Assembly (NCBI GenBank): GCA_036337765.1
Contig: JAYZDP010000104.1
Location: 3,764-67,763 of the forward strand
Length of the DNA: 64,000 nt
Direction of reading: 5' to 3'
Origin: Acidobacteriota bacterium
GTDB lineage: Bacteria; Acidobacteriota; Thermoanaerobaculia; Multivoradales; Multivoraceae
Under the pieces are notes generated by a model. The model did not search any database and was not told the DNA's origin. It saw only the letters and a list, made by a program, of their open reading frames with translations. Both the position numbers and the translations under genes were made by a program. Below are positions 3,818-36,687 of the stretch, piece after piece; position 1 is the stretch's first letter, and each line of letters opens with the position of its first letter.

Positions 3818-5515
<1,698 letters not shown>

Positions 5516-9057: not shown

Positions 9058-9459
9058 CTACGGCTCTGGTGGCATGCGCCAGAGCCAAACCAGAGCCGTG
9101 GCCGCGATGACCAGACCGAGGAACTCGCGCGAGTCCTCGATGAACTGACGATCCGTCGACATCACGCCGGCGAGGTCGCTGAGCGAGTGGTTCTGGAGCA
9201 GATCCAGGAAGCCCGGGAAGACCGTGGCACCGACGCCGACGTACACGAGGAGAACGAGGCCAATCGTCCAGGGACGGTGCCAGCCCGCGAGAGCGCCGGC
9301 AAAGAGTGCCGCCGCAGCGGCGTAAAGGGCGGCCCAGAGGAAGGAGTCGGGGTCGTTGAACTGGAGCGCGCCGAAGATCGCCATGCCCGCGCCGAGCACG
9401 ACGTAGCCGACGACGCGTTGCAGCGGGGTGGTGGCCTTCACGCGATGCCCCTGCAACAA
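9058..9459 (-). CDS. Small multi-pass membrane protein (TMEM220-like / DUF-type), function unknown
   Basis: 133-aa ORF with four hydrophobic helices (VVGYVVLGAGMAIFGAL, LWAALYAAAAALFAGALAGW, IGLVLLVYVGVGATVF, LGLVIAATALVWLW). Non-ATG (TTG) start. Confidence 0.5.
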   Translation of the reverse strand: MLQGHRVKATTPLQRVVGYVVLGAGMAIFGALQFNDPDSFLWAALYAAAAALFAGALAGWHRPWTIGLVLLVYVGVGATVFPGFLDLLQNHSLSDLAGVMSTDRQFIEDSREFLGLVIAATALVWLWRMPPEP

Positions 9460-9481
9460 TCGGGCGCCATGACACCCATCC

Positions 9482-9988
9482 TTGCACGGATGGGTCGGCC
9501 CCCTCGGTCACGCTTTACAGGACCTCGTGCCACTTCCGCCACAGACTTTTCGCGCCGGTGCCTGCGCCGTCATTGTCGGAGACGACGGCCGGGTGATGGC
9601 GTTCGAGCGTAACCAGACTCCGGTCGGGTCGTGGCAGCTGCCGCAGGGCGGCCTCGAGCCCGGCGAGTCGCCTCGCGAGGCGCTGTTTCGAGAGATCTTG
9701 GAGGAGAGCGGGATCGGTCGCGAGCTCCTGACCCTGGTCACGGAAGAGCCAAGGCTACTTGCCTACGAGCTACCGGAGGGCTTCCGCAAGCGCATCTTCG
9801 GTCGGGGCCAGACGCTCTACTGCTTCGTGCTGCGCTTCTCGGGATCGGAGGACGCCGTGACCCTTGGCGATTGTGAGGAGTTCCGCGCTTGGCGGTGGAT
9901 CGAGATGGCGCAGCTCGCTGAGGAGGTGGTCTTTTTCCGCCGGCCGCTGTATCGCGAAATCGACCGCTGGTTGCGAGAGCTCGCGTAG
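9482..9988 (+). CDS. Nudix hydrolase (RppH-like RNA pyrophosphohydrolase or diadenosine polyphosphate hydrolase type)
   Basis: Perfect Nudix box GGLEPGESPREALFREILEESGI (GX5EX7REUXEEXGU). Confidence 0.85.
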   Translation: MHGWVGPLGHALQDLVPLPPQTFRAGACAVIVGDDGRVMAFERNQTPVGSWQLPQGGLEPGESPREALFREILEESGIGRELLTLVTEEPRLLAYELPEGFRKRIFGRGQTLYCFVLRFSGSEDAVTLGDCEEFRAWRWIEMAQLAEEVVFFRRPLYREIDRWLRELA

Positions 9989-10007
9989 CGCTCAGCGAGC
10001 CGAGCCC

Positions 10008-10288
10008 TCAGCCGTACACGCGCTCGCCGTGCGGGTCGAAGAAGGCGCGCAGCGAGACCTCGGCAGGCGTGAGCGCCAGGGCCATCGTCGTGTCGACTGG
10101 GTTGGTCACGGCGTCCCCGCGCGGCGCTCGCCGCTGCATCGAGCTCGGAGATCTGGACCCCGAAGGCACGCGCCATCGAGGACTACATCGGCGCAGCCGC
10201 GCTTCGTCAGGTGGTAGGCGACGCTGCAACCCACAATGCCGCCGCCAATGACGACCGCGTCGGCTCGCGCGGGCAGGCTCGCCGTCAT
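10008..10288 (-). pseudogene. Remnant of an FAD-dependent oxidoreductase gene (DadA / glycine-oxidase / sarcosine-oxidase-beta-like). Only the N-terminal about 35 codons and a short C-terminal piece survive.
   Basis: ATG at 10288 encodes MTASLPARADAVVIGGGIVGCSVAYHLTKRG, the classic dinucleotide-binding fingerprint of DAO-family enzymes. The reading frame then collapses. A second frame ends ...LRAFFDPHGERVYG-stop at 10008, resembling a C-terminal fragment. It sits directly downstream of the alanine:cation symporter gene, a common dadA/agcS pairing. Confidence 0.5.
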
Positions 10289-10293
10289 TCCCT

Positions 10294-11730
10294 TTAGCGC
10301 CGTGCTGCGACCCGTCGCCAGTAGCCCTCGAGCTCGTCCTTGACCTTGGGCGCGAGCATGTAGAGGCCAAGGACGTTGGCCAGCGCCATGGCGAAGACCA
10401 TCGCGTCTGAAAAATCGATCACTGCCTGCAGCTGGATCGTGCAGCCGAGGACGACGAACAGGCAAAAGACAGTGTTGTAGATCGTCTTCGAGCGCGGCGA
10501 GTGACCGAAGAGGTAGATGAAGCCCTCGAGGCCGTAGTACGACCACGAGATCATCGTCGAGAATGCGAAGAGCATGACGACGACGGCGAGTGGATACGGG
10601 AACCACGAGATCACCGACTCGAAGGCCGACGACGTCAACTCGACGCCGGAGACGGTCACCTCCGCCATGCCCGGCTCCCAGACGGTCAGGGTGATGACCA
10701 GCCCTGTGATCGTGCAGATGACGACGGTGTCGATGAAAGGCTCGAGGACCGCGACTAGCCCTTCGGTGACCGGCTCTTTGGTTCGTACCGCCGAGTGGGC
10801 GATGGAGGCCGAGCCGATCCCGGCCTCGTTGGAGAAGGCGGCTCGCCGGAAGCCCAGGATCAGGACCGCGATCGCTCCGCCCGCGATTCCTTCGGGGCGG
10901 AAGGCGCCGGTGACGATCGCCTCAATGGCGAAGGGCAGCTTCGAGGCGTTGGCGAGGATCACCACTCCCGCGGTCGCCACGTACAACAGCGCCATGAGCG
11001 GCACGAGCTTCGAGGTGACCCGGGCGATCGAGCGGATGCCGCCGATGATGACGAAGGCCACTAGCACGGCGAGGATGAGGCCGAACGCCCAGCCACGCTC
11101 GGCGAAGAAGCTCCCCTCGCCTCCGGTGACGTTGACGAACTGCACGTAGGCCTGGTTCGACTGGAACATGCAGCCGACACCGAGACAGCCGACCATGACG
11201 CAGATCGCGTAGTAGACCGCCAAGCTCTTGCCGAGCCGTGGCAGGCCGAGCTCACGCAGGCCGGCATCGAGGTAGAACATCGGCCCGCCCGAGACCGAGC
11301 CGTCGGCGTGCTCGACGCGGTACTTGACGCCGAGGGTGCACTCGACGAACTTCGAGGACATGCCGAGTAGACCCGCGACGATGAGCCAAAACACCGCCCC
11401 GGGGCCGCCGACCGAGATGGCGATGGCGACGTGGGCGATGTTGCCCACCCCGACCGTGCCCGAAACGGCGGTGGTCAGGGCTTGAAAGTGGGTGACCTCG
11501 CCGGGATCGCTGGGGTCGGCGTCTGCTCCGCTGACCAGGCGAATGGCCTCACGGAAGCCGCGAATGCCGATGAAGCGGAAATAGATGGTGAAAAACGCCG
11601 CGCCGACGACCAGCCAGACCACGATCAGCTGCAGGTCGGAACCGCCGACCGGAATCGAGAAGAAGACGAGGTCGGAGAAGCGCTGAGCCAGAGGCGCAAA
11701 GAGGGCGTTGATGCGCTCGTCGATCGACAC
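10294..11730 (-). CDS. Alanine or glycine:cation (Na+) symporter, AGCS family
   Basis: 478 aa, multi-TM. N-terminal region [42 protein letters not shown] and segment [31 protein letters not shown] are characteristic of AGCS transporters. Confidence 0.9.
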
Positions 11731-12890
11731 CTAGTCGGAGTCCGGAACCTCGAGACGCACTTCGGCCTTCCGCTCGTCGCGCCCGCGGAGGTAGGTGACC
11801 TCGACGCGGTCGCCCTCCTCCTTCCTCTCGAGAAGCAGGGTCAGGTCTTCCCGGCTGCGCACGGGCTCGCCGTCGATCGCAGTGATGATGTCGCCGAGGA
11901 GCACTCGGCCGCGGCGGTCGCGGCGAAGCGGCTGCAGGCCGGCTCGGTCGGCGGGCCCGTCGGGCTCGACGCGTACGAAGATCACTCCCTCGATGCCGGC
12001 GCGCTTCGCGGTGGTGTCGGGACCCGGGTAGATGCCGAGCGCGGGCCGGTGGATCTCGCCGTGCTCGATCAGGTCCGGCACCACCCATCGCACGGTGTCG
12101 ACCGGAATGGCGAAGCCGATGCCGGCCGAGGCGCCGCTCGGGCTGTAGATCTGGGTGTTGACGCCGACGAGGCGGCCGAAGCTATCGAGAAGCGGCCCCC
12201 CCGAGTTGCCGGGGTTGATCGCGGCGTCGGTCTGGATCACGTCCTCGATGCGCGTGCGCTGGGGGTCGAGCGACTGGATCTCACGACCTAGCGCGCTGAT
12301 GACGCCGGTCGTCAAGGTGTGGTCGAGGCCGAACGGGTTGCCGATCGCGAAGACGCTCTGGCCGACCAGGAGATCCGAGGAGCTGCCAACGGGGAGCGCG
12401 GCGACCTGGTTGGCTGGAGCCTCGATCTTGAGCACCGCCAGGTCCTTCTCGCGGGCGACTCCGACCAGGGTCGCGGGCCACGACGACTGATCGCCGAGGG
12501 TCACGTGGGCGCGGTCCGCCCCCTGGATGACGTGGTAGTTGGTAACGATGTGACCCTGGTCGTCCCACACGAAGCCCGAGCCGGCGCCCGAGGGCACCGC
12601 ATAATCGCTCATCGTGAAGTAATCGCGACGCACGTCGACCGTCGTGATGTAGACGACCGAAGGCGAGGCCTCACGGAAGAGATCGACGGTCGCCTGCTCG
12701 GCCGCCTGCAGAGCGCCGCGCGGCGCTACGTCTGGCGTGGCCGCGGCGTTCGAGGCGTCCTCGGTCGGTTCTGTCGGACCCGGCTCCGCCTTGGGAAGCT
12801 CAACCCCGCTGCGCCAGAGCAGACCGGCGTAGAGGAGTAGGGCCACCAGGAGGGCGAAGACGAAGAAACGAGCGGGCGCGTGCTCTCTCA
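11731..12890 (-). CDS. HtrA/DegP-family trypsin-like serine protease with C-terminal PDZ domain. Start taken at MREHAPARFF (ATG 12890), not at the upstream ORF limit 13476.
   Basis: Catalytic triad context TNYHVI (His), DLAVLKI (Asp), GNSGGPLLD (Ser). N-terminal TM/signal FFVFALLVALLLYAGLLW. PDZ-like C-terminus. The upstream in-frame extension to 13476 is low-complexity S/P/R-rich and unlikely to be translated. Confidence 0.85.
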
Positions 12891-12940
12891 TGACGGTGTG
12901 CCGTCGACGGATGTCGTCGGACTGGGGGTAGTCTAGCCCC

Positions 12941-14533
12941 ATGCGCGAGCTTCGTCTCGGGGGTTTGCAGGCTCGGCTCCCGTGTCCGATCGCGTCAGCT
13001 GTCGAGGCCGAGCTCGTGGATTGGGACCGGGTCGACGGCACCCGGAGGCTGCTTGCCGGTGATGCATCGCTGTGGTCGGGCTGCGACGAGGCGGAGTGGC
13101 TCGGTTGGCTCGAGCCCGGTGCCGGCTGCGATACCGAAGCCTTCCGCCAGTGGCGCCACACCGCGGCCGGAGCCGGCTGGTCGAGGGTCGTGCTTCTGGG
13201 AATGGGCGGATCGAGCCTCGGGGCGCGGCTCCTGTGTGAGGGGGCACATTCGGTGCCGGGGCCTCGGGGCGCCGGTGCGCGTACGCTGGTAGTTCTCGAT
13301 ACGACCGATGCGGAAGAGATCGCCAGTGCTCGCGGCGAGCTCGACCTCGAGACCACGCTGTTCGTCGTGGCATCGAAGTCCGGCACCACGGTCGAGACCG
13401 TCTCGCTGGAGGCGTACTTCGTGGCCGAGATGGAATCGTCAGGCCTCGATGTCGGGCCGCGCGTGCTCGCCATCACCGACCCAGGGACCGAGCTCGCGAC
13501 GCGCGCGGTCGAGCGCGGCTATCACCTGCTTTATGGCCGGGCCGATATCGGTGGGCGGTTCTCGGCCCTCAGTCCTTTTGGATTGGGGGTCTTGATAGCG
13601 ATGGGCGTCGAGCCCGATTCTGTGGTCGCGGCCGCCCGACTCGCGCGGTCGGAGCTCGCCGAGGGAGCCGCGGCTGGCAACGATCCGGGGCTCGCGCTGG
13701 GTGCCGTTCTCGGTGCCTTGGCCAAGCTTGGTCACGACCTCGTGGAGATCGTGCCGCCCGCGGCCGTGCCGTCGCTCGCCGATTGGCTCGAGCAGCTTCT
13801 CGCCGAATCGACCGGCAAAGAGGGCGGGGGAATCCTCCCGATACGGTGCGGCGATGGCACTGCCCACGCCGGCCTGGTAGCCGCGTTGTGGAACGGGCGC
13901 CAAGTCGCCGACCGGGTCGGCGAGGTGCGCTCAGACTGGAAGGGCCCCCACTCCGAAGCCCTTGGCCGAGAGATCTTCAGATGGCAGGTCGCGACCGCGG
14001 TAGCCGGCTCGATCCTCGGTGTGAACCCGTTCGACCAGGCCGACGTCGACAGCGCCAAGGTGGCGGCGCACGAGCGTCTCTCGCGGCGCAGGGATCTCTC
14101 GCCGCGGGTCGTGCCGACGACGGATGCGCTCGCACGGCTGGTGGCCGGGAGCTCCGCCTCGCGCCATGTCGGTGTGCTCGCCTACCTGCCGCGCACGGCG
14201 GAGATTGTCGCGGGGGTAGAGAAAGTGCGCAAGGCGATGACCGATGCGACCGGGCGCCCCGTTACCGCGAGCTTTGGGCCACGCTATCTCCATTCCGCCG
14301 GTCAGCTGTTCAAGGGAGGCACTCCCGGGGCGTTCCTCTTCATCACCCGCCGTGGTGCTCCGTGCGTCCTCGTCCCCGGAAGCGGTGTCACCTTCGACCA
14401 GCTGCAGGCGGCGCAGGCTTCGGGCGACCTCGCCGTGCTGGCGGAGCGCGGTCGGCCGGTAGAAGCCATCGAGCTTTCGGGAGAGCTCACGGCCGGCTTG
14501 GACGACATCGCATCCCGCCTGCGCCAGCTCTGA
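12941..14533 (+). CDS. pgi: Glucose-6-phosphate isomerase
   Basis: SIS-domain signature VVLLGMGGSSLGARLL and the PGI signature ADIGGRFSALSPFG. About 530 aa. Confidence 0.8.
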   Translation: MRELRLGGLQARLPCPIASAVEAELVDWDRVDGTRRLLAGDASLWSGCDEAEWLGWLEPGAGCDTEAFRQWRHTAAGAGWSRVVLLGMGGSSLGARLLCEGAHSVPGPRGAGARTLVVLDTTDAEEIASARGELDLETTLFVVASKSGTTVETVSLEAYFVAEMESSGLDVGPRVLAITDPGTELATRAVERGYHLLYGRADIGGRFSALSPFGLGVLIAMGVEPDSVVAAARLARSELAEGAAAGNDPGLALGAVLGALAKLGHDLVEIVPPAAVPSLADWLEQLLAESTGKEGGGILPIRCGDGTAHAGLVAALWNGRQVADRVGEVRSDWKGPHSEALGREIFRWQVATAVAGSILGVNPFDQADVDSAKVAAHERLSRRRDLSPRVVPTTDALARLVAGSSASRHVGVLAYLPRTAEIVAGVEKVRKAMTDATGRPVTASFGPRYLHSAGQLFKGGTPGAFLFITRRGAPCVLVPGSGVTFDQLQAAQASGDLAVLAERGRPVEAIELSGELTAGLDDIASRLRQL

Positions 14534-14611
14534 GTCGGTAGCTGCGGGGGTCGCGCTATGAGCGTTCCACCATCTCGACGCCCTACCCGTCATGACCTAC
14601 CGCGACCCCCG

Positions 14612-16954
14612 CTACCAGAGCTCTAGCTGGGTGTCGTCGCCGATGACCTTTTCGAACTTGAGGCCGAGCAGGTCGAGGAGCGGCGTGGTGATGGGGCGGA
14701 TCTGCTTGTCGACGTAGTGCTCGTAGTCGAACGGCGACTTGCGCTCTCGTGCGGGCTCCGGGCCGTCGCTGGTGATCACGTAGTCGATCAGCGTCCCCGG
14801 GGGCCCCTTCATCTTGCGTGCGGCGGCGACATGGGGTGGAGTGGTGGCCGTGTATTCGCGCAGGTCCTTGCGCAGCGCCTTGCGGTAGACGAGCTGCTCG
14901 TCGAGCTGGCCGGTGCGCACGGCATCGACCGTCGAGCAAAGGTAGTCCTCGAATGGGCGGTCGTGGAAGAAGCGCTCGTAGAGCTCCTTCTGCATCTGTC
15001 GGGCGAGGTCGGTCCAGTCGCGGCGTACCACCTCCATGCCGGTGAAGACCACGCCGTTGTCTTCGGTGAGACCGACGTAGTGCTTCATCGCACCGCCCTC
15101 GCCGTGGCGCTTGCGTGGGAAAAGAATGCGCAGGTACAGGCGTTCGAACTCGAGCTCGAGCCGGCTCGTCACCCCCCACGTGTCGTGAACATGCGCGACG
15201 AGTCGGCGATTGAGGTCCTCGGCGAGGTGACGGCCGAGCTCGTGAGCGGCTTCTGGCGTCGATTCCGCGGAGCGGACAAACAGGCTGTCGGTGTCGCCGT
15301 AGAGCACGTCGAGGCCCTTGTCCTGCACGACGCCTTTCGCCCACATCAGGATCTCGCGCCCGAAGCTGGTGATGGCGGCCGCGAGCTTGGGGTTATAGAA
15401 CCGGCAGACAGGCGTGCCGAGCACGCCATAGAAGGAGTTCATGAGGATCTTGATGGCCTGGCTCGAGACGGCGTCGCCGCGCTCTTTGGCGTCTTCGCGC
15501 TTGACGAAAAGGCCGTCTAGGAGATCCGAGAGAATGCCCTTCTGCTTGCGAAAGATGGCTCCGTTCGGAGCCACTACCACTTCGTCCGATTGTGCGCCCT
15601 CGCCAGAGGGCAGCAGGTCAGAGCCAAGGTAGCCCAGCGGGTCGATCTCGAAGGTGCGAATGATGGACGGATACAGGCTCTTGTAGTCGAACACCAAGAC
15701 GTTGTCGTAGACCCCCGCGTCGGGCTGCAGGACCGTGCCGCCGAAGTCGTCGGATTCGAAGGTCCCGGCTCCGACGCTCGGCGCCGTGCGCCCGCGCCGC
15801 GACAGCTCCGACAGGTAGAGAAAGTCGAACGAAGCGATGGCCGCCGAGACCCGGTCGAGCGGCATGCCGGTCAAAAGGCTGCGCTCCAGCGACAGCGTCA
15901 CCAGGTCGAGCTTGTCGAGGATGTCGAGTACCAGCCTGGCGTCCTTGAGGTTGTACTCCACGAACGCCGCCCGCTCCTCGCGGTACGTGCGCAGGATCTC
16001 GCCGACTCGGTCGCTACCGTGGATGGTCTTGCCCTCGCCGAGCACCTTGTTAGATACCGAGTCGAGGCTGTAGCTCTCCATGCGAATGAAGGCGCCGCGC
16101 AGCAGGCGCACTCCGTCGAGTACGACTCGGCCGGGGATGGTGGCCTGTTCGGCGGCCCGGTCGCGACCGCCGGAGCCCTCACGGGGCACGAACAGGCGCA
16201 CGTCACCTGGCGCTCGTCCGATCTCAAGGCGCACGCCAACCGCACGCGAGCGCTGAACCAGGAAGTGGAGGTCGAAACCGATGACGTTCCAGCCGGTGAT
16301 GATGTCCGGATCCAGCTCTCGGATGCGTACACAGAGCTGGCGCAGGAGGTCCGCTTCGCTACGGTAGCTGGTGCCGAGGCCCGGACCGGCGGGCATCTCG
16401 GGGTCGACCACCATGACCTCTTCCGTGCCGCATCCGCTGAGCGCCGCCGACAGCAGCCGGTTGCGGTATGGGTCGGTCTCGATATCGATCGAGAGGATCG
16501 TCAGCGCGGGACGCGCGATCGCGGGCTCGAGGTCGGGGTTGTGAAACACCAGATCGACACCGGCACCCTCCACCGGCTGTCCGTGGATCGCCACCGCGGA
16601 CCTGATCTGCCGATCGATCAGCGGCCGGAGCGCGAAGCGCACGTCGGCTTCGAGGCACTCGATGCCAGCCCCCACCAGCCGGTCTCGTAGCGGCGGTACG
16701 TCGGATGGTTTCGGGGCCTCGACGCGCAACAGCTTTGCGCCACCCAGATCGACGCGCGGTGTTGGCAGCAGGGACGTGGCCCCGAGCGCACGCGCGCGCG
16801 CGTCGGCGCCGCGGGGGATGAAGAAGTGCGGCCGCTGGCGGTCGTCACGGACCAGGAAGGTCTTACCGCTGTCGAGCTTTCCGAACAGATGAACGACCGG
16901 ACGTTCGTTCTCGATGCGGTAGGTGGGCTGGAGGATCAGGCCGCGCGCGACCAT
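14612..16954 (-). CDS. polB: DNA polymerase II (family B, PolB)
   Basis: 780 aa. Exonuclease region followed by the family-B polymerase motifs DxxSLYPSII and YGDTDSLFV (motif C). The N-terminus (MVARGLILQPTYRIE...) resembles bacterial Pol II. Confidence 0.9.
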   Translation of the reverse strand: MVARGLILQPTYRIENERPVVHLFGKLDSGKTFLVRDDRQRPHFFIPRGADARARALGATSLLPTPRVDLGGAKLLRVEAPKPSDVPPLRDRLVGAGIECLEADVRFALRPLIDRQIRSAVAIHGQPVEGAGVDLVFHNPDLEPAIARPALTILSIDIETDPYRNRLLSAALSGCGTEEVMVVDPEMPAGPGLGTSYRSEADLLRQLCVRIRELDPDIITGWNVIGFDLHFLVQRSRAVGVRLEIGRAPGDVRLFVPREGSGGRDRAAEQATIPGRVVLDGVRLLRGAFIRMESYSLDSVSNKVLGEGKTIHGSDRVGEILRTYREERAAFVEYNLKDARLVLDILDKLDLVTLSLERSLLTGMPLDRVSAAIASFDFLYLSELSRRGRTAPSVGAGTFESDDFGGTVLQPDAGVYDNVLVFDYKSLYPSIIRTFEIDPLGYLGSDLLPSGEGAQSDEVVVAPNGAIFRKQKGILSDLLDGLFVKREDAKERGDAVSSQAIKILMNSFYGVLGTPVCRFYNPKLAAAITSFGREILMWAKGVVQDKGLDVLYGDTDSLFVRSAESTPEAAHELGRHLAEDLNRRLVAHVHDTWGVTSRLELEFERLYLRILFPRKRHGEGGAMKHYVGLTEDNGVVFTGMEVVRRDWTDLARQMQKELYERFFHDRPFEDYLCSTVDAVRTGQLDEQLVYRKALRKDLREYTATTPPHVAAARKMKGPPGTLIDYVITSDGPEPARERKSPFDYEHYVDKQIRPITTPLLDLLGLKFEKVIGDDTQLELW

Positions 16955-29700: not shown

Positions 29701-32079
29701 TCATCCCCGGCGTCGTAGATGGACACCACGCTTGAGCGACAGCTCTCGCCCGGGCCTCCAGCCGCGCCGTCGGCCGTCGCGCAGGGCGCGGACTGCGGTC
29801 GAAAGGACCTGGGCGGCGCCTTCGAGAGCCGAGCCGCCAGGGGACTCTAAATAGCGGCGCAAGTGGCCCCAGCGGGATCGCGGGTCGGGGCGTGCTTCGA
29901 GCTCGGCGAGGACACTGACGCCCTCCCACTCGGGAAGCCGACGCCAGTGTCGGTAGAGGCGGACGGCGACACTGCGGTCGAGGGCCTCGTCGCGGCGCTG
30001 CGGGACGGCGGTCAACCAGGCAGGCTCGGCCGCCAGCCAGCCGAGAGGGCCGGCGAGCGCTCGGGTGACGAGCGCGAGCTCCTCGGCGACATCGCAGCGA
30101 TGGGCGCAGTCGGCCAGGCGGTCGGCGTCGATGAGGTCATCGCGCTCGAGGGCGAGGGCGAGGTCGAGGACGGCGCGCATCGTGACCGCGAGGTCGTGGT
30201 GCAGGAGGTGCCCGAGGGCGAGGATGAGCGCATGCTCGGGCGCCGGGGCTTCGAAGCGCACGCCGCCCGCCTGGCAGGAGGTGGCGTGGTCCCAGGTCTG
30301 CTCGAGCAACCATGGGCGCTCCGACAGCTCGTCCCAGAGATCGAAGTGGAGCTCGATCGAACGACCGGTCTCCGGGTCGTGGCGCTCGACGTGGTGGGGT
30401 GCCGTGCGGCCTCGCTCGGTGTAGCCGAGGGCCTCTAGCTCGCGTTCGAGCGCGCGGAGCTCCGCCGGGCGGCAGAGGAGGTCGAGGTCGACCATCGGAC
30501 GCAGACCGGGGGCACCGTAGAAGCGGGCGATGTCGGCCGGGCCCTTGAAAGCCAGTGGGCGCAACCCGAGTTCGCGGCAGCGCTCGAGGAGGCGGCCGAG
30601 GTCGTCGAGCCGGCGGCCGTTGTGGAGTGCCGTCAGGCAGGAGGCGCCGAACCAGTCGTCGCGCACCGCGGCGTCAACTTGGAAGGGCAGCCGGCCGTCG
30701 TGGGCGAGATGGCTGAGGACGGGCTGCAGCCGGTGCGCCGCCGCGAGGATGACCAGGCGGTCGAGGTCGTCGACCGGTCGGGGCGGTGGCTGGCCTCCGG
30801 TCGCCTTCGAGACGAACTCTCTGCAGGCCCGCTCGAGGAGGGCGATGCACGAGTCGACCGGCGTGGTTTCGAAACGGTCGGCGGCGAGGGGCGGCCGCGA
30901 CCCCGCGGCCTCGACCGCGAACCCCATGCCCTCGGCGAGGCGTCGGCAGACGCGGTCGCTAGCGTAGTCGGACGCCAGCTGGCCGCGCTTGGCGGCGGCG
31001 ATCCGGCGGGCCTCTCCGCGGTGCTCGAAGACCCAGCGCAGCAGCTCGCTCGCGTGGGCTCGGTCGGCTCGGGCCCAGTGCGGGGGACCCGAGGCGGTGC
31101 GGTACTCCTCGTCGGGAGCCTCGACCAGGTCGTAGCGCACCGCGAGCGGCCAGTCATCGCCGAGGTAGTCCTTCTGGCCTCCCCAACCGGTAAGGATCGC
31201 GGGATTGCCGAAGAGCAGCGCCTCGAAGGGGCAGATGCCCCAGCCCTCGCTGCGCGGCAGCCCGAAGAAGCAGTCGCCCCGTGTGTGCAGGCCGTCGATG
31301 GTGCGCGGCGAGACCTCCTCGGCTACGAGATGCACGCGCCCGCGGCCCGGGTACTCCGCCAGGATCTTCGCCACCTGCCACCAGGTCATCTGCTCGTGCG
31401 GCACGGCGCGGCCCACGCGGTCGCCCTCGAGGGCACCGGGCACGATCGAATCGGTCTTGACCACCAGCACTACACGCTCGTCGGCCCGGAAGGTCTCGAG
31501 GTAGGCCCGCAGGGTGTCGCTCATGGACTTGCGCGGGGTCCAGGTGGCGATGGTGTAGAAGACGAAGTCGTCGTTCTCGATCGCCCGCAGCGCGTCGGGC
31601 ACCGGAGCGCGCCGGACCTCCCGCGCGATGTGCGGCACGATCTCGATGGGTCGGGTGATGCCCTCCGACGCCAGCACCGAACGGTTGAACTCACTCGGCA
31701 CGAAGAGGCGCTCGAACCCATTCAGAACGTCGCACCAGCCGTCCGGAAGGCGATCCATCTCCCAGGCGACGTAGGCGTAGGGCGTCAGGTCGAGCGCCTT
31801 GCGCAACCAGTGGGCGTGGGCCCTCGGCGGAGGCACGTCGATCAGCAGGGTGTCGACGTCGAGAGGGCGGTGGTGGAGCCGCAGGACGCGTTCATCGATC
31901 GCCGGGTGCAGGCCCGGTAGCCGGTCGAGCGAGCTGGGCGTGTCGAGCCCCTTCGCGATCGGCCACCACGTCAGGGGGACCCCAAGCCGGTCGAGCCCTG
32001 CCGCGTAGAGCGTGGCGGCGTCGCCGTAGCCGGAGCCCGGCAGCTGGGTGACTAGCTGCAGTCCGCGGGGCGGCGTCAT
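29701..32079 (-). CDS. Fusion protein: GT4-family (GT-B) glycosyltransferase fused to a PF14907-type uncharacterised nucleotidyltransferase domain. The two halves are ordered N-terminal glycosyltransferase, C-terminal nucleotidyltransferase. Start set at ATG 32079 (MTPPRGLQLV), which overlaps the upstream gene stop as ATGA.
   Basis: Glycos_transf_1-like region FVPSEFNRSVL ... GDCFFGLPRSEGWGICPFEALLFGNPAILTGWGGQKDYL. C-terminal half has the NTP_transf_5 pattern: DRLVILAAAHRLQPVL ... LRPLAFKGPADIARFYGAPGLRPMVDLDLLCRPAELRALERELEALGY ... IELHFDLWD. Confidence 0.75.
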   Translation of the reverse strand: MTPPRGLQLVTQLPGSGYGDAATLYAAGLDRLGVPLTWWPIAKGLDTPSSLDRLPGLHPAIDERVLRLHHRPLDVDTLLIDVPPPRAHAHWLRKALDLTPYAYVAWEMDRLPDGWCDVLNGFERLFVPSEFNRSVLASEGITRPIEIVPHIAREVRRAPVPDALRAIENDDFVFYTIATWTPRKSMSDTLRAYLETFRADERVVLVVKTDSIVPGALEGDRVGRAVPHEQMTWWQVAKILAEYPGRGRVHLVAEEVSPRTIDGLHTRGDCFFGLPRSEGWGICPFEALLFGNPAILTGWGGQKDYLGDDWPLAVRYDLVEAPDEEYRTASGPPHWARADRAHASELLRWVFEHRGEARRIAAAKRGQLASDYASDRVCRRLAEGMGFAVEAAGSRPPLAADRFETTPVDSCIALLERACREFVSKATGGQPPPRPVDDLDRLVILAAAHRLQPVLSHLAHDGRLPFQVDAAVRDDWFGASCLTALHNGRRLDDLGRLLERCRELGLRPLAFKGPADIARFYGAPGLRPMVDLDLLCRPAELRALERELEALGYTERGRTAPHHVERHDPETGRSIELHFDLWDELSERPWLLEQTWDHATSCQAGGVRFEAPAPEHALILALGHLLHHDLAVTMRAVLDLALALERDDLIDADRLADCAHRCDVAEELALVTRALAGPLGWLAAEPAWLTAVPQRRDEALDRSVAVRLYRHWRRLPEWEGVSVLAELEARPDPRSRWGHLRRYLESPGGSALEGAAQVLSTAVRALRDGRRRGWRPGRELSLKRGVHLRRRG

Positions 32080-32948
32080 CGAGGCCCGGCCGCGAGCTCG
32101 TGCGGCGTCGGGACGAGGGGCTGCAGCAGGCGGGCGAGCCCACTCGACGAGCGGTGGATGCGCGTGACGGTGAGCTCCTCGGCGTGGTGGGTCGAGAAGT
32201 CGACTCGATCCTCTTCCCACCACATGTGCTGCCACAGGTGGAGCGAGGAGGCCTCGCCGGTGTCCAGCGGCTCTTCGGCGAAGAGCCGTGCGATCCCCTC
32301 CGGCGTCGAGCGCACCGGGAAGAACGTCGCCTCGGGCTCGACGTGGATCTCGTCGGGGAGCTCTTCGCTGAGCTGCTGCGCGAGGAAGCCCGAGTGGTTG
32401 CTCCAGCTGCCGTCGAGGGCACCCTCCATACGTTCACGCCAGGTGCGGGCGAAGAGCGAGCCGGGCTCGGCCATCAGCAGGGCGTTGCAGAGGGACGGCT
32501 TGACGTTGCCGGTGTGTTCGTCGACGACCGGCGGCTCTCGGCCGATGACGAAGCTCTCTTCCCACAGGTGCTCCGGTGGCGGCCGCAGGAAGATCGTGTC
32601 GATGTCGGCGTAGAGACCGCCGTGCTCGATCAGGGCGTCGAGTCGCACGAAGTCGGCCTGGTGGGCATAGCGGTAGGCTTCGGGGACGAGCCGGTCATCG
32701 TAGCGCGCGCGATCGATCTCGACCGGCCGCTCGACACGAACCAACTCCAGGTGCGGCCGGATCTCCTCCCACAGAGCGCCGAACGGCAGCGAATGGTAGT
32801 GCAGCACGATCTTCTCCGGCCGGACGACCTGGCGACACGACTCGATGGCCGCGTAGTGGAGCGGGTGAAAGGTGAGCCGCTGAGGGCGGAGTCCGAAGAC
32901 GAAGTGCGCGATGCGCGGGATCCCGGCCATGGGAGAGGGAAGTGACAT
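32076..32948 (-). CDS. GT32-like glycosyltransferase (Och1/DXD sugar-binding region family)
   Basis: N-terminal IPRIAHFVFG (compare IPKxIHQIW) and ADFVRLDALIEHGGLYADIDTIF (DXD-containing motif of Gly_transf_sug). Start ATG 32948 (alternative ATG 32930). Translationally coupled to the downstream GT-NTase gene. Confidence 0.65.
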   Translation of the reverse strand: MSLPSPMAGIPRIAHFVFGLRPQRLTFHPLHYAAIESCRQVVRPEKIVLHYHSLPFGALWEEIRPHLELVRVERPVEIDRARYDDRLVPEAYRYAHQADFVRLDALIEHGGLYADIDTIFLRPPPEHLWEESFVIGREPPVVDEHTGNVKPSLCNALLMAEPGSLFARTWRERMEGALDGSWSNHSGFLAQQLSEELPDEIHVEPEATFFPVRSTPEGIARLFAEEPLDTGEASSLHLWQHMWWEEDRVDFSTHHAEELTVTRIHRSSSGLARLLQPLVPTPHELAAGPR

Positions 32949-32974
32949 TAGCACGCGACCGCGGGCGGAGCCTG

Positions 32975-34234
32975 ATGCTCGCTCCGCTGGTGCCCGAGCC
33001 GACGGGCAACGGCTTGGCGATGCGGGCGGCGACGTCGCTCGAGGCCTTGGCGCGCCTCGGCGACGTGACACTGGTGGTCGTTCCGGCGGCCGATCCGGAG
33101 GCCGCCCGACGCGACGCTGGCTGGGCGCGCGAGCGGTGCGAGCGGTTGGTGCTCATGGCGCTGCCCTCCGGCCGGGAGGCCGCAGCCGCGTGGCTCGCCT
33201 CGCCCACGGGGCGTCGGATCGCGGCCGCCGCTGGGTCGTTGCCGTCGCTCGCGCGGGGGGTGCCGCCGGTTCTCGGCAGCCGGCTCGCTGCCGAGCTGGG
33301 ACGGGGCTTCGAGCGTATCTTCACGCTTCGGCTTTACCTGTCCGGCGTGGCCCTCGGCTGGCGCGACGCGGAAGCGGCGGGCGCTCCGCAGCTCGTGCTC
33401 GATCTCGACGAGGACGACGCTGCGACGCTCTCGGCAATCGCCCGGCTCGAAGCGGCACGTGGCGTGGGGGATCGCGCCCGGAAGACCCGGGAGGAGGCGG
33501 AGGCCTTCGGCCGCCTCGCGGGCGCTGCTCTACCGAACTTTGACCGTCTGCTGGCGTCGACCGTACTCGAGGCGCAGGGTCTGGCCGCGGCGACTGGCGG
33601 ACGGGAGATCGTCGTAGTGCCGAACGCGGTGCGACGGCCCGGGAACGGTGACAGCCCAGGGAGGCCGCCTGCATCAAGCGCAGGGTCGGCGGCTCCCCGA
33701 CTGCTGCTGGTCGGCAACTACTCCTACCTGCCGAATGTCGATGCAGCCGAACGCCTGGTGCGGGGCATCCTGCCGCGTCTTCGCGAGTCCCGTTCCGAGG
33801 CGGAGGCGCACCTGGTGGGCGGGGGCGGCGGCTCGGTGCTCGAGGCTCTGGCGAGGGAGGATGGAGCGGTCGTCCACGGCTGGGTCGACGACCTCCGGCC
33901 GCACTACGGCGCGGCGGCGGTGGTGGTGGTGCCGCTGCGGGCCGGCGGTGGCAGCCGCCTGAAGATCCTCGAGGCGGCGGCTCACGGCGTGCCGGTGGTC
34001 GCCACTCCGGTAGCCGCTCGGGGGCTCGAGGGGCTACGCGACGGCCGGGAGATCCGCCTGGCCGAGAGCGACGACGAGTTGGCTCTTGCGGTCCGGACGG
34101 TGCTCGACGATCCGGCGGCCGCCGCGGCGGTCGCGGAACGGGCTCGCGATCGGGTGCTTGCGGCGCACGCGGCCGACCGCGTCGCGGCCGATTTGGCGAC
34201 CCTCCTCGAGACTCCCTCGACCGGGCGCCGGTGA
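32975..34234 (+). CDS. GT4-family glycosyltransferase (group 1). Start ATG 32975 (MLAPLVPEP); the ORF could extend to GTG 32942.
   Basis: N-terminal MLAPLVPEPTGNGLAMRA (compare RIL.L.P..P..GG). C-terminal Glycos_transf_1 motifs GGGGGSVLEAL ... GGGSRLKILEAAAHGVPVVATPVAARGL. Confidence 0.8.
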   Translation: MLAPLVPEPTGNGLAMRAATSLEALARLGDVTLVVVPAADPEAARRDAGWARERCERLVLMALPSGREAAAAWLASPTGRRIAAAAGSLPSLARGVPPVLGSRLAAELGRGFERIFTLRLYLSGVALGWRDAEAAGAPQLVLDLDEDDAATLSAIARLEAARGVGDRARKTREEAEAFGRLAGAALPNFDRLLASTVLEAQGLAAATGGREIVVVPNAVRRPGNGDSPGRPPASSAGSAAPRLLLVGNYSYLPNVDAAERLVRGILPRLRESRSEAEAHLVGGGGGSVLEALAREDGAVVHGWVDDLRPHYGAAAVVVVPLRAGGGSRLKILEAAAHGVPVVATPVAARGLEGLRDGREIRLAESDDELALAVRTVLDDPAAAAAVAERARDRVLAAHAADRVAADLATLLETPSTGRR

Positions 34235-34249
34235 TACCGTGCGCGGATT

Positions 34250-34531
34250 GTGAGCGAGTCACCGAAGTACGAGCGGGCGCCGGGCCTGGAGTCGCACGAG
34301 GCCGATGATGGACTGGTGATCTTCGATCCCGCCGTCGACAAGATCCACCACATCAACTCCTCGGCCGGAGTGTTCTTCGAGCTCTGCGACGGCACCCGTG
34401 ACGCCGAGCGCATCGCCGAGGTCGCGACCGGCGTCTTCGGCCCGGACGAATTGCCGGAGGGCGCCGTCGCACAGGCGCTCGAGATGCTGGTGCGCGAGGG
34501 CATCGTACGGCAGGTCGACGGGGACTCTTGA
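34250..34531 (+). CDS. PqqD-family protein (RiPP recognition element, peptide chaperone)
   Basis: 93 aa. DGLVIFDPAVDKIHHINSSAGVFFELCDGTRDAERIAEVATGVFG...AVAQALEMLVREGIV matches the PqqD consensus along its whole length. GTG start 16 nt after the GT4 stop. Confidence 0.8.
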   Translation: MSESPKYERAPGLESHEADDGLVIFDPAVDKIHHINSSAGVFFELCDGTRDAERIAEVATGVFGPDELPEGAVAQALEMLVREGIVRQVDGDS

Positions 34532-35385
34532 TCTCCTTCCAACTGCTCGACACCCGGGTGGAGGTCGTGCGCGACGACCCGGTGATCGACGGCGGGCTGC
34601 GCTACCTGGCGCACGGCGCTTCGAGCGAGGTCGTCGTCCGGCGGACGATACGCTATGCCATCGAGGGCTCGGGGCCGTGGCTGCTGCGCGAGGAGGGCGA
34701 CGCTGTCGACGTCCTGGAAGATCCGGACGACTTGCTCTGGTTCCTCTTTGTGCGTGTACACGGTCGGGTGTGCGAGCGCTATTCGCTGGCGGGCTGGTCG
34801 ACCTTCCACGCCGCCGTCGCGGGCGTGCGAGGCGTGCGGCTGTTGTTCGTCGGACCGTCGAGCGTCGGCAAATCGACTCTCGCTTCGACGCTGCTCTTTG
34901 GGGGGCATTCGGTCGAGGGCGACGAGATGGCCTTCGAGCGCGCTGGCGTCGTGGTGCCGCTGGCGCGCCGCTTTCATCTCAAGGAAGGGATCGAGCGGCA
35001 CGTGTCGGGCCTGGCCCCCTGGATCGACGATCTGCCGGCGGTCAGGCGCGACGGCGCGCCGGTGCGGGCCTTCGACCCGAGCGAGCACGGCTTCGAGTGG
35101 AGGGTGAGGTCGGCGCCGGTCGACGCGGTCGTCTGTCTGCGCGCCGAGCACGGCGGAGAGAGCCGGCTTCGGGAGATAACGACCTTCGAAGCGCTGACGG
35201 GATTGCTGGGCGGTGCTCTGAACTGGGTCCAGTCGCGAAGCGTCCTGGTGGCGGCGGCGACGCGGCTGGCCAGGGCGCGGCGGGTCGAGCTCACCTTGGG
35301 ACGGCCCTCCGAGACCCTGGCGGCGCTCGAGTCCTGGTGCGGCTCGATCGACGGGAAGTTGCCGGACACGGACGGGATCGTCTAG
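34528..35385 (+). CDS. HPr-kinase-like (HprK C-terminal-domain-like) P-loop kinase, of the type found in phosphorylating lasso-peptide clusters
   Basis: Walker A GPSSVGKSTLASTLL in the context LLFVGPSSVGKST...GHSVEGDEMAF. About 285 aa. Start overlaps the PqqD stop (TTGA). Confidence 0.7.
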   Translation: MISFQLLDTRVEVVRDDPVIDGGLRYLAHGASSEVVVRRTIRYAIEGSGPWLLREEGDAVDVLEDPDDLLWFLFVRVHGRVCERYSLAGWSTFHAAVAGVRGVRLLFVGPSSVGKSTLASTLLFGGHSVEGDEMAFERAGVVVPLARRFHLKEGIERHVSGLAPWIDDLPAVRRDGAPVRAFDPSEHGFEWRVRSAPVDAVVCLRAEHGGESRLREITTFEALTGLLGGALNWVQSRSVLVAAATRLARARRVELTLGRPSETLAALESWCGSIDGKLPDTDGIV

Positions 35386-35415
35386 GATGCGCTCGTACAT
35401 CACGGGAGACCACCC

Positions 35416-35580
35416 ATGTCGAAGAGAGAAGAGGCCCTTGAAGAGTTCGACGAGTCGCGACGCGACTTCGTGCGCAAGGCCGGCGTGGCCGGTTTCGTGG
35501 CGCCGGTGGTGGCGTCGTTCACGATGTCCGGTCTGATGGCCCGCCCGGCCGCCGCGCAGGCACCGAACCAGTCGCCATAG
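35416..35580 (+). CDS. 54-aa peptide MSKREEALEEFDESRRDFVRKAGVAGFVAPVVASFTMSGLMARPAAAQAPNQSP. It resembles a twin-arginine (Tat) signal peptide with almost no mature domain, and is the candidate substrate (precursor) of the surrounding PqqD/HprK/NTase/GT cluster.
   Basis: ATG preceded by GGGAGA at -12. Located 30 nt after the kinase gene and 10 nt before the GT2-TPR gene, co-oriented. Contains SRRDFVRK (RRxFLK-like), a hydrophobic h-region and an AQA motif. Ends NQSP with a Ser at the penultimate position. Confidence 0.5.
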   Translation: MSKREEALEEFDESRRDFVRKAGVAGFVAPVVASFTMSGLMARPAAAQAPNQSP

Positions 35581-35589
35581 AGCCCGGCG

Positions 35590-36687
35590 GTGGTGCGCGT
35601 CACCGCTGCCCTCATTGTCCGCGACGAAGCGGAGCATCTGCGCGCTTGCCTACAGGCGGCCGGTCCGCTCGTTGACGAGATCGTCGTCGTCGACACCGGA
35701 TCGGATGACGACAGCCCGGCGGTCGCCGAGGCGGCTGGGGCGCACGTGATCTACGATGCGTGGCGGGACGACTTCGCTCGCCCTCGCAACCTCGGCCTCG
35801 AGGCCGCCACGGGCGACTGGATCCTCTACCTCGACGCCGACGAGAGGGTGGCGGCGGAGCCGGGGTGGCGACAGCGGCTTGAGGCGCCCGATGTCCTGGG
35901 GGCCCGGGTGGCGTTCCGCGCGGCCAGCCACCTGACCCCGTACACCGAGCTCCGCCTCTTCCGTAGCCGCCCGGACCTGCGCTTCCGCGGCGCCATCCAC
36001 GAGACGGTGGTCCCGGACGTCGAGGCAGTCGCGGCCCGCGAGGGCGTGCGGGTGGTCGACGCGCCCGAGGTCTTCGTGGAGCACCTCGGCTACGAGGGTG
36101 ATCGAACGCCCAAGTACCGGCGCGACCTGCCGATCCTGCGCCGGGCTGTCGAGGACGATCCCGATCGTCTCTTTCTCTGGCACGCCCTGGGCGAGGCGGC
36201 GCTCGGGCTGGGGCGGCGCGTCGAGGCGGAGCGGGCGTGGCGGCGCGGCGTCGAGGTTGCCCGGAGGGCCCCGGGGAATGCGATCGGTACCATGTTGTGG
36301 GTCGACCTCATCTCGATGCACTTTGCGTGGGAGACGATCGAGGACGTCGAAGCCCTGGTCGATGAGGCACTGGTCCGGTCCCCCGAGGACCCGGCGGTGC
36401 TCTGGTGGAGCGCACGCTGGTCCGCCGAGGCTGGCGATCCCGTTGGGGCGGAGCGGCGGCTGCGTGCCCTCCTCGAACGGGGAGAGCCGAAAGGGCCCGG
36501 CGCGGTCGGGGTCGACCGGCGGCTCTTCGGCGAGCTCGGCTGGGCCCTGCTGGGGTCGGTGCTGCTGGCCGAGGGGCGTGACGAAGAGGCGCTACGCTAC
36601 CTGAGGCTTGCGGCGGAGCGGCGCCCGGACGACGCCGAGCTGCGGGCGAAGCGAAGCCTCGCCGAGTCCCGCCTGACGTCGGCCTGA
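35590..36687 (+). CDS. GT2-family glycosyltransferase (SpsA-like) with C-terminal TPR repeats
   Basis: N-terminal ALIVRDEAEHLRACLQAAGPLVDEIVVVDTGSDDDS ... WILYLDADERV (GT2 DxD). C-terminal helical repeats (LGEAALGLGRRVEAERAWRRGVEVAR..., LAEGRDEEALRYLRLAAERRPDDAEL). Confidence 0.8.
   Translation: MVRVTAALIVRDEAEHLRACLQAAGPLVDEIVVVDTGSDDDSPAVAEAAGAHVIYDAWRDDFARPRNLGLEAATGDWILYLDADERVAAEPGWRQRLEAPDVLGARVAFRAASHLTPYTELRLFRSRPDLRFRGAIHETVVPDVEAVAAREGVRVVDAPEVFVEHLGYEGDRTPKYRRDLPILRRAVEDDPDRLFLWHALGEAALGLGRRVEAERAWRRGVEVARRAPGNAIGTMLWVDLISMHFAWETIEDVEALVDEALVRSPEDPAVLWWSARWSAEAGDPVGAERRLRALLERGEPKGPGAVGVDRRLFGELGWALLGSVLLAEGRDEEALRYLRLAAERRPDDAELRAKRSLAESRLTSA

Follow-up and report, generated by a model that had tools for sequence, protein, structure and literature searches.

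This study was concerned with a gene of 54 codons that lies in a stretch of 64,000 nucleotides from an Acidobacteriota bacterium (contig JAYZDP010000104.1, positions 3,764 to 67,763 of the forward strand), and with the family of precursor peptides to which it belongs. The whole stretch is referred to as the window, and positions are those of the window unless another locus is named. The gene occupies positions 35416-35580 of the forward strand and encodes MSKREEALEEFDESRRDFVRKAGVAGFVAPVVASFTMSGLMARPAAAQAPNQSP, 54 amino acids followed by a stop codon. A Shine-Dalgarno sequence, GGGAGA (35404-35409, forward strand), is separated from the ATG at 35416 by the six-nucleotide spacer CCACCC, and GGAGG- or GGGAG-type sites also precede the ATG start codons of most homologues. 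The gene lies in a 204-nucleotide gap between the stop of an HprK-like kinase gene (35385) and the start of a gene for a family 2 glycosyltransferase with tetratricopeptide repeats (GT2-TPR; 35590). An earlier reading of this DNA from its letters alone (the sequence-only reading) had described this open reading frame (ORF), its ribosome binding site and its placement between the two enzyme genes, and all were confirmed by inspection of the sequence and its translation. Three overlapping ORFs (35387-35536 on the forward strand, 35400-35696 and 33982-35637 on the reverse strand) were judged to be artefacts of high GC content; the frame conserved elsewhere is that of the 54-residue ORF. No other member of the family was found in the 64-kb window. 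The identical protein VYE73_07425, from an Acidobacteriota metagenome-assembled genome (MAG), is annotated as "hypothetical protein," and the peptide has no match above cutoff in Pfam or NCBIfam.

The peptide has the layout of a twin-arginine translocation (Tat) signal peptide, and the acidic n-region, the SRRDFVRK motif and the n/h/c architecture proposed for it from the sequence were all borne out. Six of residues 1-14 are Asp or Glu, and the n-region ends in a twin-arginine block, S14-R15-R16-D-F-V-R-K21 (35455-35478; this and the following features are on the forward strand). The Tat consensus is S/T-R-R-x-F-L-K at the boundary of the n- and h-regions, with small residues at positions -3 and -1, and the S-R-R-D-F-V-R-K block agrees with it, as do the h- and c-regions with what is expected of them. 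The h-region is an uncharged stretch of 21 residues, A22-A42 (35479-35541; mean Kyte-Doolittle hydropathy 1.61), which contains a block conserved in the family, P30..V32..F35-T-M-S-G-L40. It is followed by R43-P-A-A-A-Q-A, within which R43-P-A45-A-A47 (35542-35556) forms the c-region with a predicted signal peptidase I site, A-x-A|Q48. The predicted mature tail is Q48-A-P-N51-Q-S53-P54 (35557-35577), and the proposed modification site within it is N51-Q-S53 at 35566-35574.

Conservation of the gene and its family

A word-indexed search with the peptide retrieved the identical protein and eight relatives with 61-75% identity, and more loci came from scanning contigs of genomes and metagenomes. 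Twelve non-redundant syntenic loci (L001-L005 and L007-L013) were compared, from Acidobacteriota (including Ca. Multivoradales), Alphaproteobacteria, Halieaceae and other Gammaproteobacteria. The gene order is the same in all twelve: a GT4-type glycosyltransferase, PqqD, the HprK-like kinase, the peptide and GT2-TPR. A divergent PF04488 enzyme and one or two copies of a 402-residue GT-B-like protein are also present wherever the contig extends that far. The peptide is one of the most strongly conserved products: identity across the loci is 47-71% for the peptide, 28-46% for the kinase and 31-47% for PqqD. The block from the twin arginines to the G-L is under purifying selection, with a proportion of synonymous differences (pS) of 0.75 against a proportion of non-synonymous differences (pN) of 0.21 in 91 pairwise comparisons. 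Because the ORF is conserved in twelve loci, because of this difference between pS and pN, and because it has 380 relatives (see below), the 54-codon ORF is a real gene and not a product of chance. The earlier claim of a genuine, conserved small gene associated with a recognition element (RRE) for peptides made on ribosomes and modified after translation (RiPPs) thus holds. When the kinase was used as the word-indexed query it gave only two useful relatives, and the syntenic loci were therefore located through the peptide. This biases the sample of the close subfamily toward conservation of the peptide, a bias that is partly offset by the distant contexts, which came from an exhaustive profile search.

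Several of these loci have features of their own. L012, a Halieaceae MAG, has tandem precursor genes at about 4258-4428 and 4578-4745, both apparently with GTG starts, whose leaders are nearly identical and whose tails read ANMSVG and ANMSF. The most divergent syntenic homologue, at 7974-8246 of L013, has G-K-R in place of S-R-R and continues beyond an NTT motif into a His-rich tail of 36 residues, HGHHHHKQHKHHEHHHHHHHKHHEHEHHHHHHHG, which suggests metal binding. Where L013 has this His-rich tail, L004 and L011 have tails rich in Pro and Ala.

The wider family was collected with a nine-sequence profile that was scored against 1.84 billion representative proteins (clusters at 50% identity). At E<=1e-3 this search gave 380 proteins, of which 15 reached E<=1e-10; among the 150 matches listed, two were repeat proteins matched spuriously. 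With a broader profile, a word-indexed search gave 102 proteins, none with a Pfam domain and all "hypothetical" or unnamed except for two evident mis-annotations. These are P0178 and P0246, short hydrophobic peptides of 34-56 residues that are called "Na+/H+-dicarboxylate symporter" by JGI. One member, P0011, carries the precomputed domain label PF27840.1. The peptides are thus a large unannotated family that spans at least two phyla, Acidobacteriota and Pseudomonadota.

The N-terminal domain common to the family is about 50 residues long and has the consensus h-L-x-x-V-D-x-S-R-R-x-F-L-K/R-K-x-x-x-G-x-A-F-x-x-P-V-V-A-S-F-S/T-M-x-G-L-x(4)-A-x-A. Statistics of the leader were calculated from 156 members, and those of the A-x-A motif and the tail from the 142 that have A-x-A. 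The second Arg of the motif is invariant (156/156), and the first position is Arg in 143 members and Lys in 13. Phe is found at RR+2 in 132 of the 156, the next residue is Leu, Val, Ile or Met in every member, and Lys or Arg follows. Beyond the motif, the longest stretch free of charged residues measures 20 residues in the median and never fewer than 12. Within the core, F35 is present in 155 members, M37 in 114, G39 in 112 and L40 in 120. Conservation of the h-region thus goes far beyond what an ordinary signal peptide needs, and the region is probably also a recognition element. Position 38, which is Ser in the window (35527-35529), is Asp or Glu in 61 of the 156 (SFSMDGL, SFSMEGL), which is unusual for a signal peptide. 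The idea that an acidic residue here mimics a phosphorylated Ser and tracks the kinase was rejected on the few contexts available, since L015 and L016 have Asp and also a kinase. The part that follows A-x-A has a median length of 32 residues and a range of 4 to 382, and it has at most 12 residues in 43 of the 142 members. The window peptide is therefore a minimal member of the family and not an oddity.

The family changes where the peptide is expected to be cut. The sequence-only reading had placed cleavage after "AQA," leaving a five-residue tail, PNQSP, and a Pro at +1 that would block signal peptidase I. However, A49 of this "AQA" is variable, and it is A45-x-A47, directly before Q48, that forms the conserved small-x-small site. 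A45 is found in 127 and A47 in 129 of the 156 members, and an A-x-A no more than 14 residues from the G-L is seen in 142, with the same spacing in 95 of these. The residue at +1 is Gln in 52 of the 142 and in 18 of 20 close homologues. Cleavage is predicted at this conserved site, AAA|Q, which would put Gln at +1 in place of Pro and give a tail of seven residues, QAPNQSP.

The same reading had also proposed the C-terminal Ser as the modified residue. Ser53 is penultimate, and the conserved element is N-x-S/T, 2-5 residues past A-x-A. A comparison of the syntenic small ORFs had been suggested as a check on the RR motif and the C-terminal Ser; the RR motif and a Ser or Thr in the tail are conserved in them, but a terminal Ser is not. 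The outcome that had been named as refuting the sequence-only reading was thus not observed. In 19 of 20 close homologues N-x-S/T stands one or two residues beyond A-x-A-Q, as NQS, NST, NTT, NQT, NSS, NMS or NGT, even though the tails of this subfamily may have as few as four residues or extend for 20-40 residues rich in Pro or His. In the family, 101 of the 156 members have N-x-S/T no further than 22 residues from the G-L, compared with 43.5 +/- 5 in composition-preserving shuffles. Asn is present within 10 residues of A-x-A in 127 of the 142, and 77 of those 127 have Ser or Thr at N+2. Among the first eight residues of the mature part 13.8% are Asn, against 4.8% of those further on, and the Asn-centered N-x-S/T keeps its place 2-5 residues after A-x-A whatever the length of the tail (4-382 residues). 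Thus, Asn is the most conserved residue of the tail, and Ser or Thr at +2 is strongly but not universally present. In the few contexts examined, Ser or Thr at N+2 showed no clear correlation with the presence of the kinase.

The motif is repeated in tandem in some longer tails. For example, FPNQT occurs about six times in P0100 and GNMT four times in P0114, and P0096, P0076 and P0121 also have repeats; FPNVT and GNIT are among the repeat types. P0148, whose gene adjoins GT2-TPR and PqqD (L020), has five PNQH repeats that contain no Ser, Thr or Cys, which makes Asn a likelier candidate than a hydroxyl residue for what is recognized or modified. The tails of L003, L004, L009 and L011 read A-A-Q-S-N-x-S, and the core of the linear polyphosphorylated peptides (LPPs), whose polyphosphorylation (S*) was shown by experiment, begins A-Q-S*-N-W-K (PMC13381572). 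The shared Q-S-N could reflect a common preference of HprK-like kinases, or it could be a coincidence; the window peptide, unlike these tails, has Pro instead of Ser before the Asn.

Enzymes encoded beside the precursor

Upstream of the precursor gene, a PqqD-family RRE of 93 residues is encoded at 34250-34531 (forward strand; Pfam PqqD, 26.4 bits against a gathering threshold of 23.4) and an HprK-like P-loop kinase of 285 residues at 34528-35385 (forward strand; TIGR04352, E 8e-6). The kinase scores 25.2 bits against TIGR04352, with a cutoff of 200, and PqqD scores 21 against TIGR04353, with a cutoff of 35, and both are thus outside the HPr-rel-A definition. TIGR04352 is matched by all 14 kinase orthologues, each far below the cutoff, and a profile of the 14 matches the HPr kinase structure 1ko7 with E 1e-5. 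Judged from these profile matches, the kinases are a distinct HprK-like clade related to TIGR04352.

The GT2-TPR enzyme, of 365 residues, is encoded directly downstream (35590-36687, forward strand; Pfam Glycos_transf_2, 5.8e-15, and TPR matches). Its best NCBIfam match is the SunS S-glycosyltransferase (TIGR04195; 3.6e-13, 49.2 bits against a cutoff of 350), and this match covers the GT2 domain only. Its best matches in the PDB are GmaR (8e-17), SunS (7msp, 7msn) and 7msk, with alignments over residues 4-140 for SunS and GmaR and over residues 4-193 for 7msk. GmaR is a flagellin O-GlcNAc transferase, and GmaR, SunS and 7msk all glycosylate Ser, Thr or Cys residues of proteins or peptides. GT2-TPR is proposed as the primary modifying enzyme and PqqD as the chaperone that binds the leader.

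Three further glycosyltransferases and a nucleotidyltransferase domain are encoded on the upstream side. A GT4-type enzyme of 430 residues (32942-34234, forward strand; Pfam Glyco_trans_1_4, 1.5e-23) is syntenic wherever the loci of the close subfamily extend to it. On the reverse strand, a divergent DXD-region glycosyltransferase of PF04488 (32076-33071; Pfam Gly_transf_sug, 1e-8) has orthologues at the same position in 10 loci, with 52-63% identity, and its true start is probably downstream of the first GTG. The adjoining ORF on that strand (29701-32235), with a probable start near 32079, combines a GT-B-like part with NTP_transf_5 (PF14907; 4.2e-41, residues 490-725). The N-terminal part is 46% identical to the 402-residue protein of L001 and has a weak match to the GT-B structure 3oy2 (E 0.009). 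In L001 and L002 each part has a gene of its own, and in L001 an additional gene for 264 residues stands between the two. The ORF of the window may be a true fusion, which would suggest that the two enzymes act together, or an assembly error. The enolase, Na/H exchanger and Mfd encoded downstream are not part of the system. No ABC exporter, no S26- or SipW-type leader peptidase and no initiating phosphoglycosyltransferase is encoded in the conserved clusters examined, and no oligosaccharyltransferase (STT3/PglB) or flippase Pfam family was found in the cluster of the window or in L001, L002, L015, L016, L018 and L022.

Gene contexts were also retrieved for ten distant precursors, two of which, P0100 and P0123, are on contigs of less than 1.5 kb and were uninformative. 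The order is NTP_transf_5, PqqD, kinase, precursor and GT2-TPR for P0194 (L015) and GT2-TPR, PqqD, kinase and precursor for P0234 (L016). P0240 (L018) has PqqD, precursor and GT2-TPR, with neither kinase nor NTP_transf_5 within 9 kb, and P0216 (L022) has the same three genes with no recognizable kinase. P0148 (L020) has a divergent GT4 followed by precursor, GT2-TPR and PqqD, and P0048 (L014) has precursor and GT2-TPR on a contig that begins at the precursor. The context of P0154 has GT2-TPR, several glycosyltransferases, PqqD and precursor. That of P0231 (L021) has a GT1/GT61 fusion, PqqD and precursor on a contig that ends about 1 kb downstream. PqqD adjoins the precursor in every context that has that flank on the contig, and GT2-TPR does so in all but L021, with its early contig end. 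The association thus extends to members that are only 30-45% identical to the window peptide. The invariant set is the precursor, PqqD and nearly always GT2-TPR. The kinase and NTP_transf_5 are accessory, since they are present in L015, L016 and the loci of the window subfamily but absent from L018 and L022.

Other genes recur in some of these clusters. A protein of about 770 residues with HEAT-type repeats, otherwise unannotated, is encoded in L014 (2741-5053) and L015 (4238-6559), with 46% identity over 600 residues, and may be a further accessory component. A Glyco_transf_61 domain is present in L021 (4749-7655, fused to GT1/GT4 directly upstream of PqqD) and in L022 (9523-10317). The GT61 family includes the eukaryotic O-GlcNAc transferase of EGF domains, and the domain may replace or supplement GT2-TPR in these two clusters. 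The flanks of L001, a Multivoradales locus (1-1021 and 9323-15704), encode a bifunctional ATP-sulfurylase/APS-kinase, a GT10 fucosyltransferase, a type I phosphomannose isomerase and an epimerase similar to GDP-mannose dehydratase. These genes hint at fucose or mannose, possibly also sulfate, in the decoration. Sulfotransferases accompany some paeninodin-type clusters (PMC8498205).

Modification, export and alternative explanations

With moderate confidence, we interpret the 54-residue product as a substrate whose residues 1-47 would serve both as a RiPP-style leader and as a Tat signal, and whose tail would be modified in the cytoplasm before the peptide is exported and cleaved. The PqqD-type RRE, and probably also the TPR domain, would hold the leader through the blocks "h-L-x-x-V/F-D" and "P-V-V-A-S-F-T-M-S-G-L." The GT2-TPR enzyme would then modify N51-x-S53 beside the cleavage site, a position we infer from conservation. 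O-glycosylation of Ser or Thr is the more likely chemistry because of the enzyme family to which GT2-TPR belongs, while Asn may be the acceptor instead, an alternative that is supported by the conservation pattern and by the PNQH repeats of P0148. In the window subfamily the HprK-like kinase would probably phosphorylate Ser53, the only hydroxyl of the tail, and NTP_transf_5 and the three further glycosyltransferases would extend the product to a phospho-Ser with sugars on the phosphate. This part of the proposal is made by analogy with paeninodin, pseudomycoidin and the LPPs.

The order of steps proposed here follows from the enzymes. The translations of GT2-TPR, PqqD and the kinase begin without a hydrophobic segment like that of a signal peptide, and nucleotide-dependent enzymes of these families act in the cytoplasm. 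With enzymes that read as soluble and belong to such families, the tail would have to be modified ahead of translocation. Tat is the only general pathway open to pre-folded or bulky cargo and Sec does not fit modified cargo, so that a peptide modified before export would be expected to leave by Tat rather than by Sec. Tat is also able to move short unstructured hydrophilic peptides. Housekeeping signal peptidase I would then cut after A47 and release the decorated heptapeptide (Q)APNQSP into the periplasm; an N-terminal Gln can cyclize to pyroglutamate. The general Tat and LepB machinery would in this way take the place of a dedicated exporter and leader peptidase, which fits the finding that the clusters encode neither.

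PqqD may have a role in these steps comparable to that of a Tat proofreading chaperone. Some Tat leaders are held by dedicated cytoplasmic chaperones (TorD, DmsD) until maturation is complete. The binder proposed here differs from these in having the PqqD/RRE fold, and the maturation would be covalent decoration rather than insertion of a cofactor. A more specific form of the proposal is that the peptide is a carrier for glycan export: a Tat peptide would be loaded with a (phospho-)oligosaccharide by an RRE-guided enzyme like SunS or GmaR, perhaps on Asn, with PqqD as the proofreading chaperone. We regard this form as possible, though doubtful.

The sequence-only reading had left a choice between a leader that borrowed features of a Tat signal and a Tat-targeted micro-peptide of the membrane. 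The two are not exclusive, and the evidence favors one sequence that serves both as the leader recognized by the enzymes and as a working export signal. A TatP-type regular expression, RR.[FGAVML][LITMVF], after Bendtsen et al. 2005, is satisfied by 140 of the 156 members. The tails of some longer members are of an extracytoplasmic type. PEP-CTERM scores above its NCBIfam cutoff in the tails of P0077 and P0132, IPTL-CTERM does so in that of P0240, the tails of P0123 and P0130 contain DUF11 domains, and pentapeptide domains are also found among the longer members. To our knowledge, PEP-CTERM, IPTL-CTERM and DUF11 are features known only on exported proteins. Because longer members end in PEP-CTERM or IPTL-CTERM or carry DUF11, the N-terminal domain is most likely a true export signal. 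P0240 belongs to the same system, since it is encoded within a cluster of PqqD, precursor and GT2-TPR (L018).

Several observations weigh against a Tat-exported substrate that is modified on a hydroxyl. The Tat model TIGR01409, a hidden Markov model of 29 positions, gives the window peptide 15.5 bits against a cutoff of 16.7, which is a near miss, and it matches only 8 of 20 close homologues at E<=1. The Asp or Glu at leader position 38 cuts the hydrophobic core to about 15 residues in the members that have it. Searches of the window and of the fetched loci gave no match to tatA, tatC or lepB, which is a weak negative. As the core of the leader is over-conserved for a signal, it might be the RRE or the enzymes, and not TatC, that recognize the RR motif. 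With regard to the modification, 55 of the 156 members have no Ser or Thr at N+2, the repeats of P0148 have no hydroxyl residue at all, and the kinase assignment rests on matches below threshold.

An RR block that acts only as a recognition sequence for the RRE and the enzymes, with a product that is retained in the cytoplasm or exported along some unlinked path, would account for part of this. It would explain why conservation (F35, PVVASF.M.GL) exceeds the needs of Tat, and the TIGR01409 score below cutoff and the lack of nearby tat genes agree with it. However, the n/h/c layout and A-x-A are kept across the 380 relatives, tails with PEP-CTERM, IPTL-CTERM or DUF11 make sense only outside the cytoplasm, and no alternative exporter is present in any cluster examined. 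A leader without Tat export is therefore judged quite unlikely. The same longer members bear on a second possibility, which was also the second alternative of the sequence-only reading, that the signal is never cleaved and the 54-residue micro-protein stays in the membrane as a signal-anchor, with its N-terminus inside and the modified N-x-S tail on the periplasmic face. A membrane-anchored glycan has an obvious periplasmic use and a seven-residue product does not, the unusual conservation of the h-region would suit a lasting structural role, and the C-terminal anchors of some family members indicate that attachment to the membrane is used. Yet members with DUF11 or pentapeptide domains resemble ordinary secreted proteins. 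Furthermore, the presence of A-x-A in 142 of 156, its fixed spacing in 95 and a permissive +1 position (Q/G/A/S, never a conserved Pro) are expected if the peptide is cut, and we consider the signal-anchor unlikely.

Two other explanations leave more of the data aside. N-x-S/T is formally the sequon of N-glycosylation, Asn is its most conserved residue and the cluster is rich in glycosyltransferases, so the peptide might be exported unmodified and receive a glycan en bloc in the periplasm from a PglB-like enzyme, after the cluster glycosyltransferases have built it on a lipid carrier. The conserved clusters encode no oligosaccharyltransferase, flippase or initiating phosphoglycosyltransferase, however, and about 40% of the Asn-bearing members have no Ser or Thr at +2. 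The linked PqqD and the soluble enzyme of SunS/GmaR type would also remain unexplained, all of which makes this route very improbable. The peptide could instead be no substrate but a Tat-targeted or membrane-anchoring partner of an enzyme complex, as small proteins that are mostly Tat signal do exist and the peptide matches TIGR02811 ("formate dehydrogenase region TAT target") at 18.7 bits against a cutoff of 48.45. That weak match is limited to the generic Tat part. The N-x-S/T motif and its tandem repeats, the tails of 4-382 residues, the tandem copies in L012 and the linkage to the RRE would have no explanation, and a partner of this kind seems hardly probable at all.

Relation to known systems and significance

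Normally, the leader of a RiPP precursor is removed by a dedicated protease, and a dedicated transporter then carries out the export. Several known systems share parts of the arrangement described here. The closest published one is LPP (Popov et al. 2026, PMC13381572), which also has an RRE, an HprK-like kinase and an NTP transferase. Both have a conserved leader followed by variable C-termini (35-200 residues in LPP) and loci rich in glycosyltransferase and polysaccharide genes, and in both the leader is removed by an enzyme of the signal peptidase type, which is a prediction for our family. Like the motif of our family, the residue modified in LPP is only a few positions from the cleavage site; it is Ser3 of the core AQSNWK and is polyphosphorylated by the HPr-kinase homologue (PMC13381572). 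However, the LPP clusters encode a SipW-like peptidase and an MsbA-like exporter, neither of which is found in the clusters of our family, and the LPP leader motif YxxPxVLxHQxIxFETxxS is absent from the window peptide and from the family consensus (PMC13381572). LPP is reported to be restricted to Bacillota, whereas our family is found in Acidobacteriota and Pseudomonadota. In addition, GT2-TPR is a constant partner in our family and is lacking in LPP, and the kinase is dispensable in our family.

Glycocins, and the family of GT2 peptide and protein glycosyltransferases to which SunS, ThuS and GmaR belong, are comparable in that the enzyme encoded beside the precursor has the same GT2 domain followed by a helical repeat domain, and in that a ribosomal peptide would be glycosylated in the cytoplasm. 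However, the Cys residues, double-glycine leader and helix-loop-helix core of glycocins are absent here, and so are their ABC exporter with a C39 peptidase and their thiol-disulfide oxidoreductases. We know of no RRE that is part of a glycocin system. Paeninodin and pseudomycoidin have an HPr-kinase homologue that phosphorylates a Ser of the precursor, together with a discrete PqqD-like RRE, and in pseudomycoidin a PF14907-type nucleotidyltransferase adds hexoses to the phosphate (PMC8498205). These lasso systems have a cyclase and a B2 protease and a strictly C-terminal Ser, but our family has neither enzyme and its Ser is penultimate or internal.

The use of a secretion signal as a leader also has parallels. 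The bufferins, the oxazolins and the RiPPs of the lipoprotein pathway combine a secretion signal as leader with an RRE-type partner and housekeeping export (PMC11626156, PMC12452194, PMC13056109). Their signals are of the Sec or lipoprotein type and their chemistry is that of MNIO enzymes on Cys, whereas our family has a Tat-type signal and, as proposed, glycosyl or phosphoryl transfer at N-x-S/T. The sequence-only reading had called such a leader unusual for a peptide associated with an RRE, and this agrees with the literature, in which even Sec signal peptides on RiPP precursors are called "highly unusual" (PMC12452194). Full-text searches found no report in which Tat or twin-arginine signals are connected to RiPPs, RREs or glycocins, no paper on PF14907 or TIGR04352 in this context and no account of the present family. 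Thus, peptide glycosylation or phosphorylation guided by an RRE and RiPP precursors with signal peptides are kinds already known, and a Tat-type leader has not been reported before, to the extent searched.

In this widespread unannotated family a Tat-type signal is combined with an RRE and a peptide glycosyltransferase, which suggests that the peptides are modified and then exported by Tat. If this is true, a Tat leader on a peptide that is already glycosylated or phosphorylated would make mechanistic sense and would be an arrangement not described before. If the peptide is a carrier for glycans, sugars would reach the envelope independently of a lipid carrier, and if Asn is the acceptor, GT2-TPR would be a new cytoplasmic Asn-glycosyltransferase. 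The system bears on whether Tat carries glycosylated cargo and whether GT2-TPR uses N-x-S/T, and on the roles of the PF14907 nucleotidyltransferase and the HprK-like kinase outside Bacillota. With 380 clusters, and members from tails of four residues to proteins with 380, the family may represent a general system for the glycosylation of proteins and peptides rather than a single natural product.

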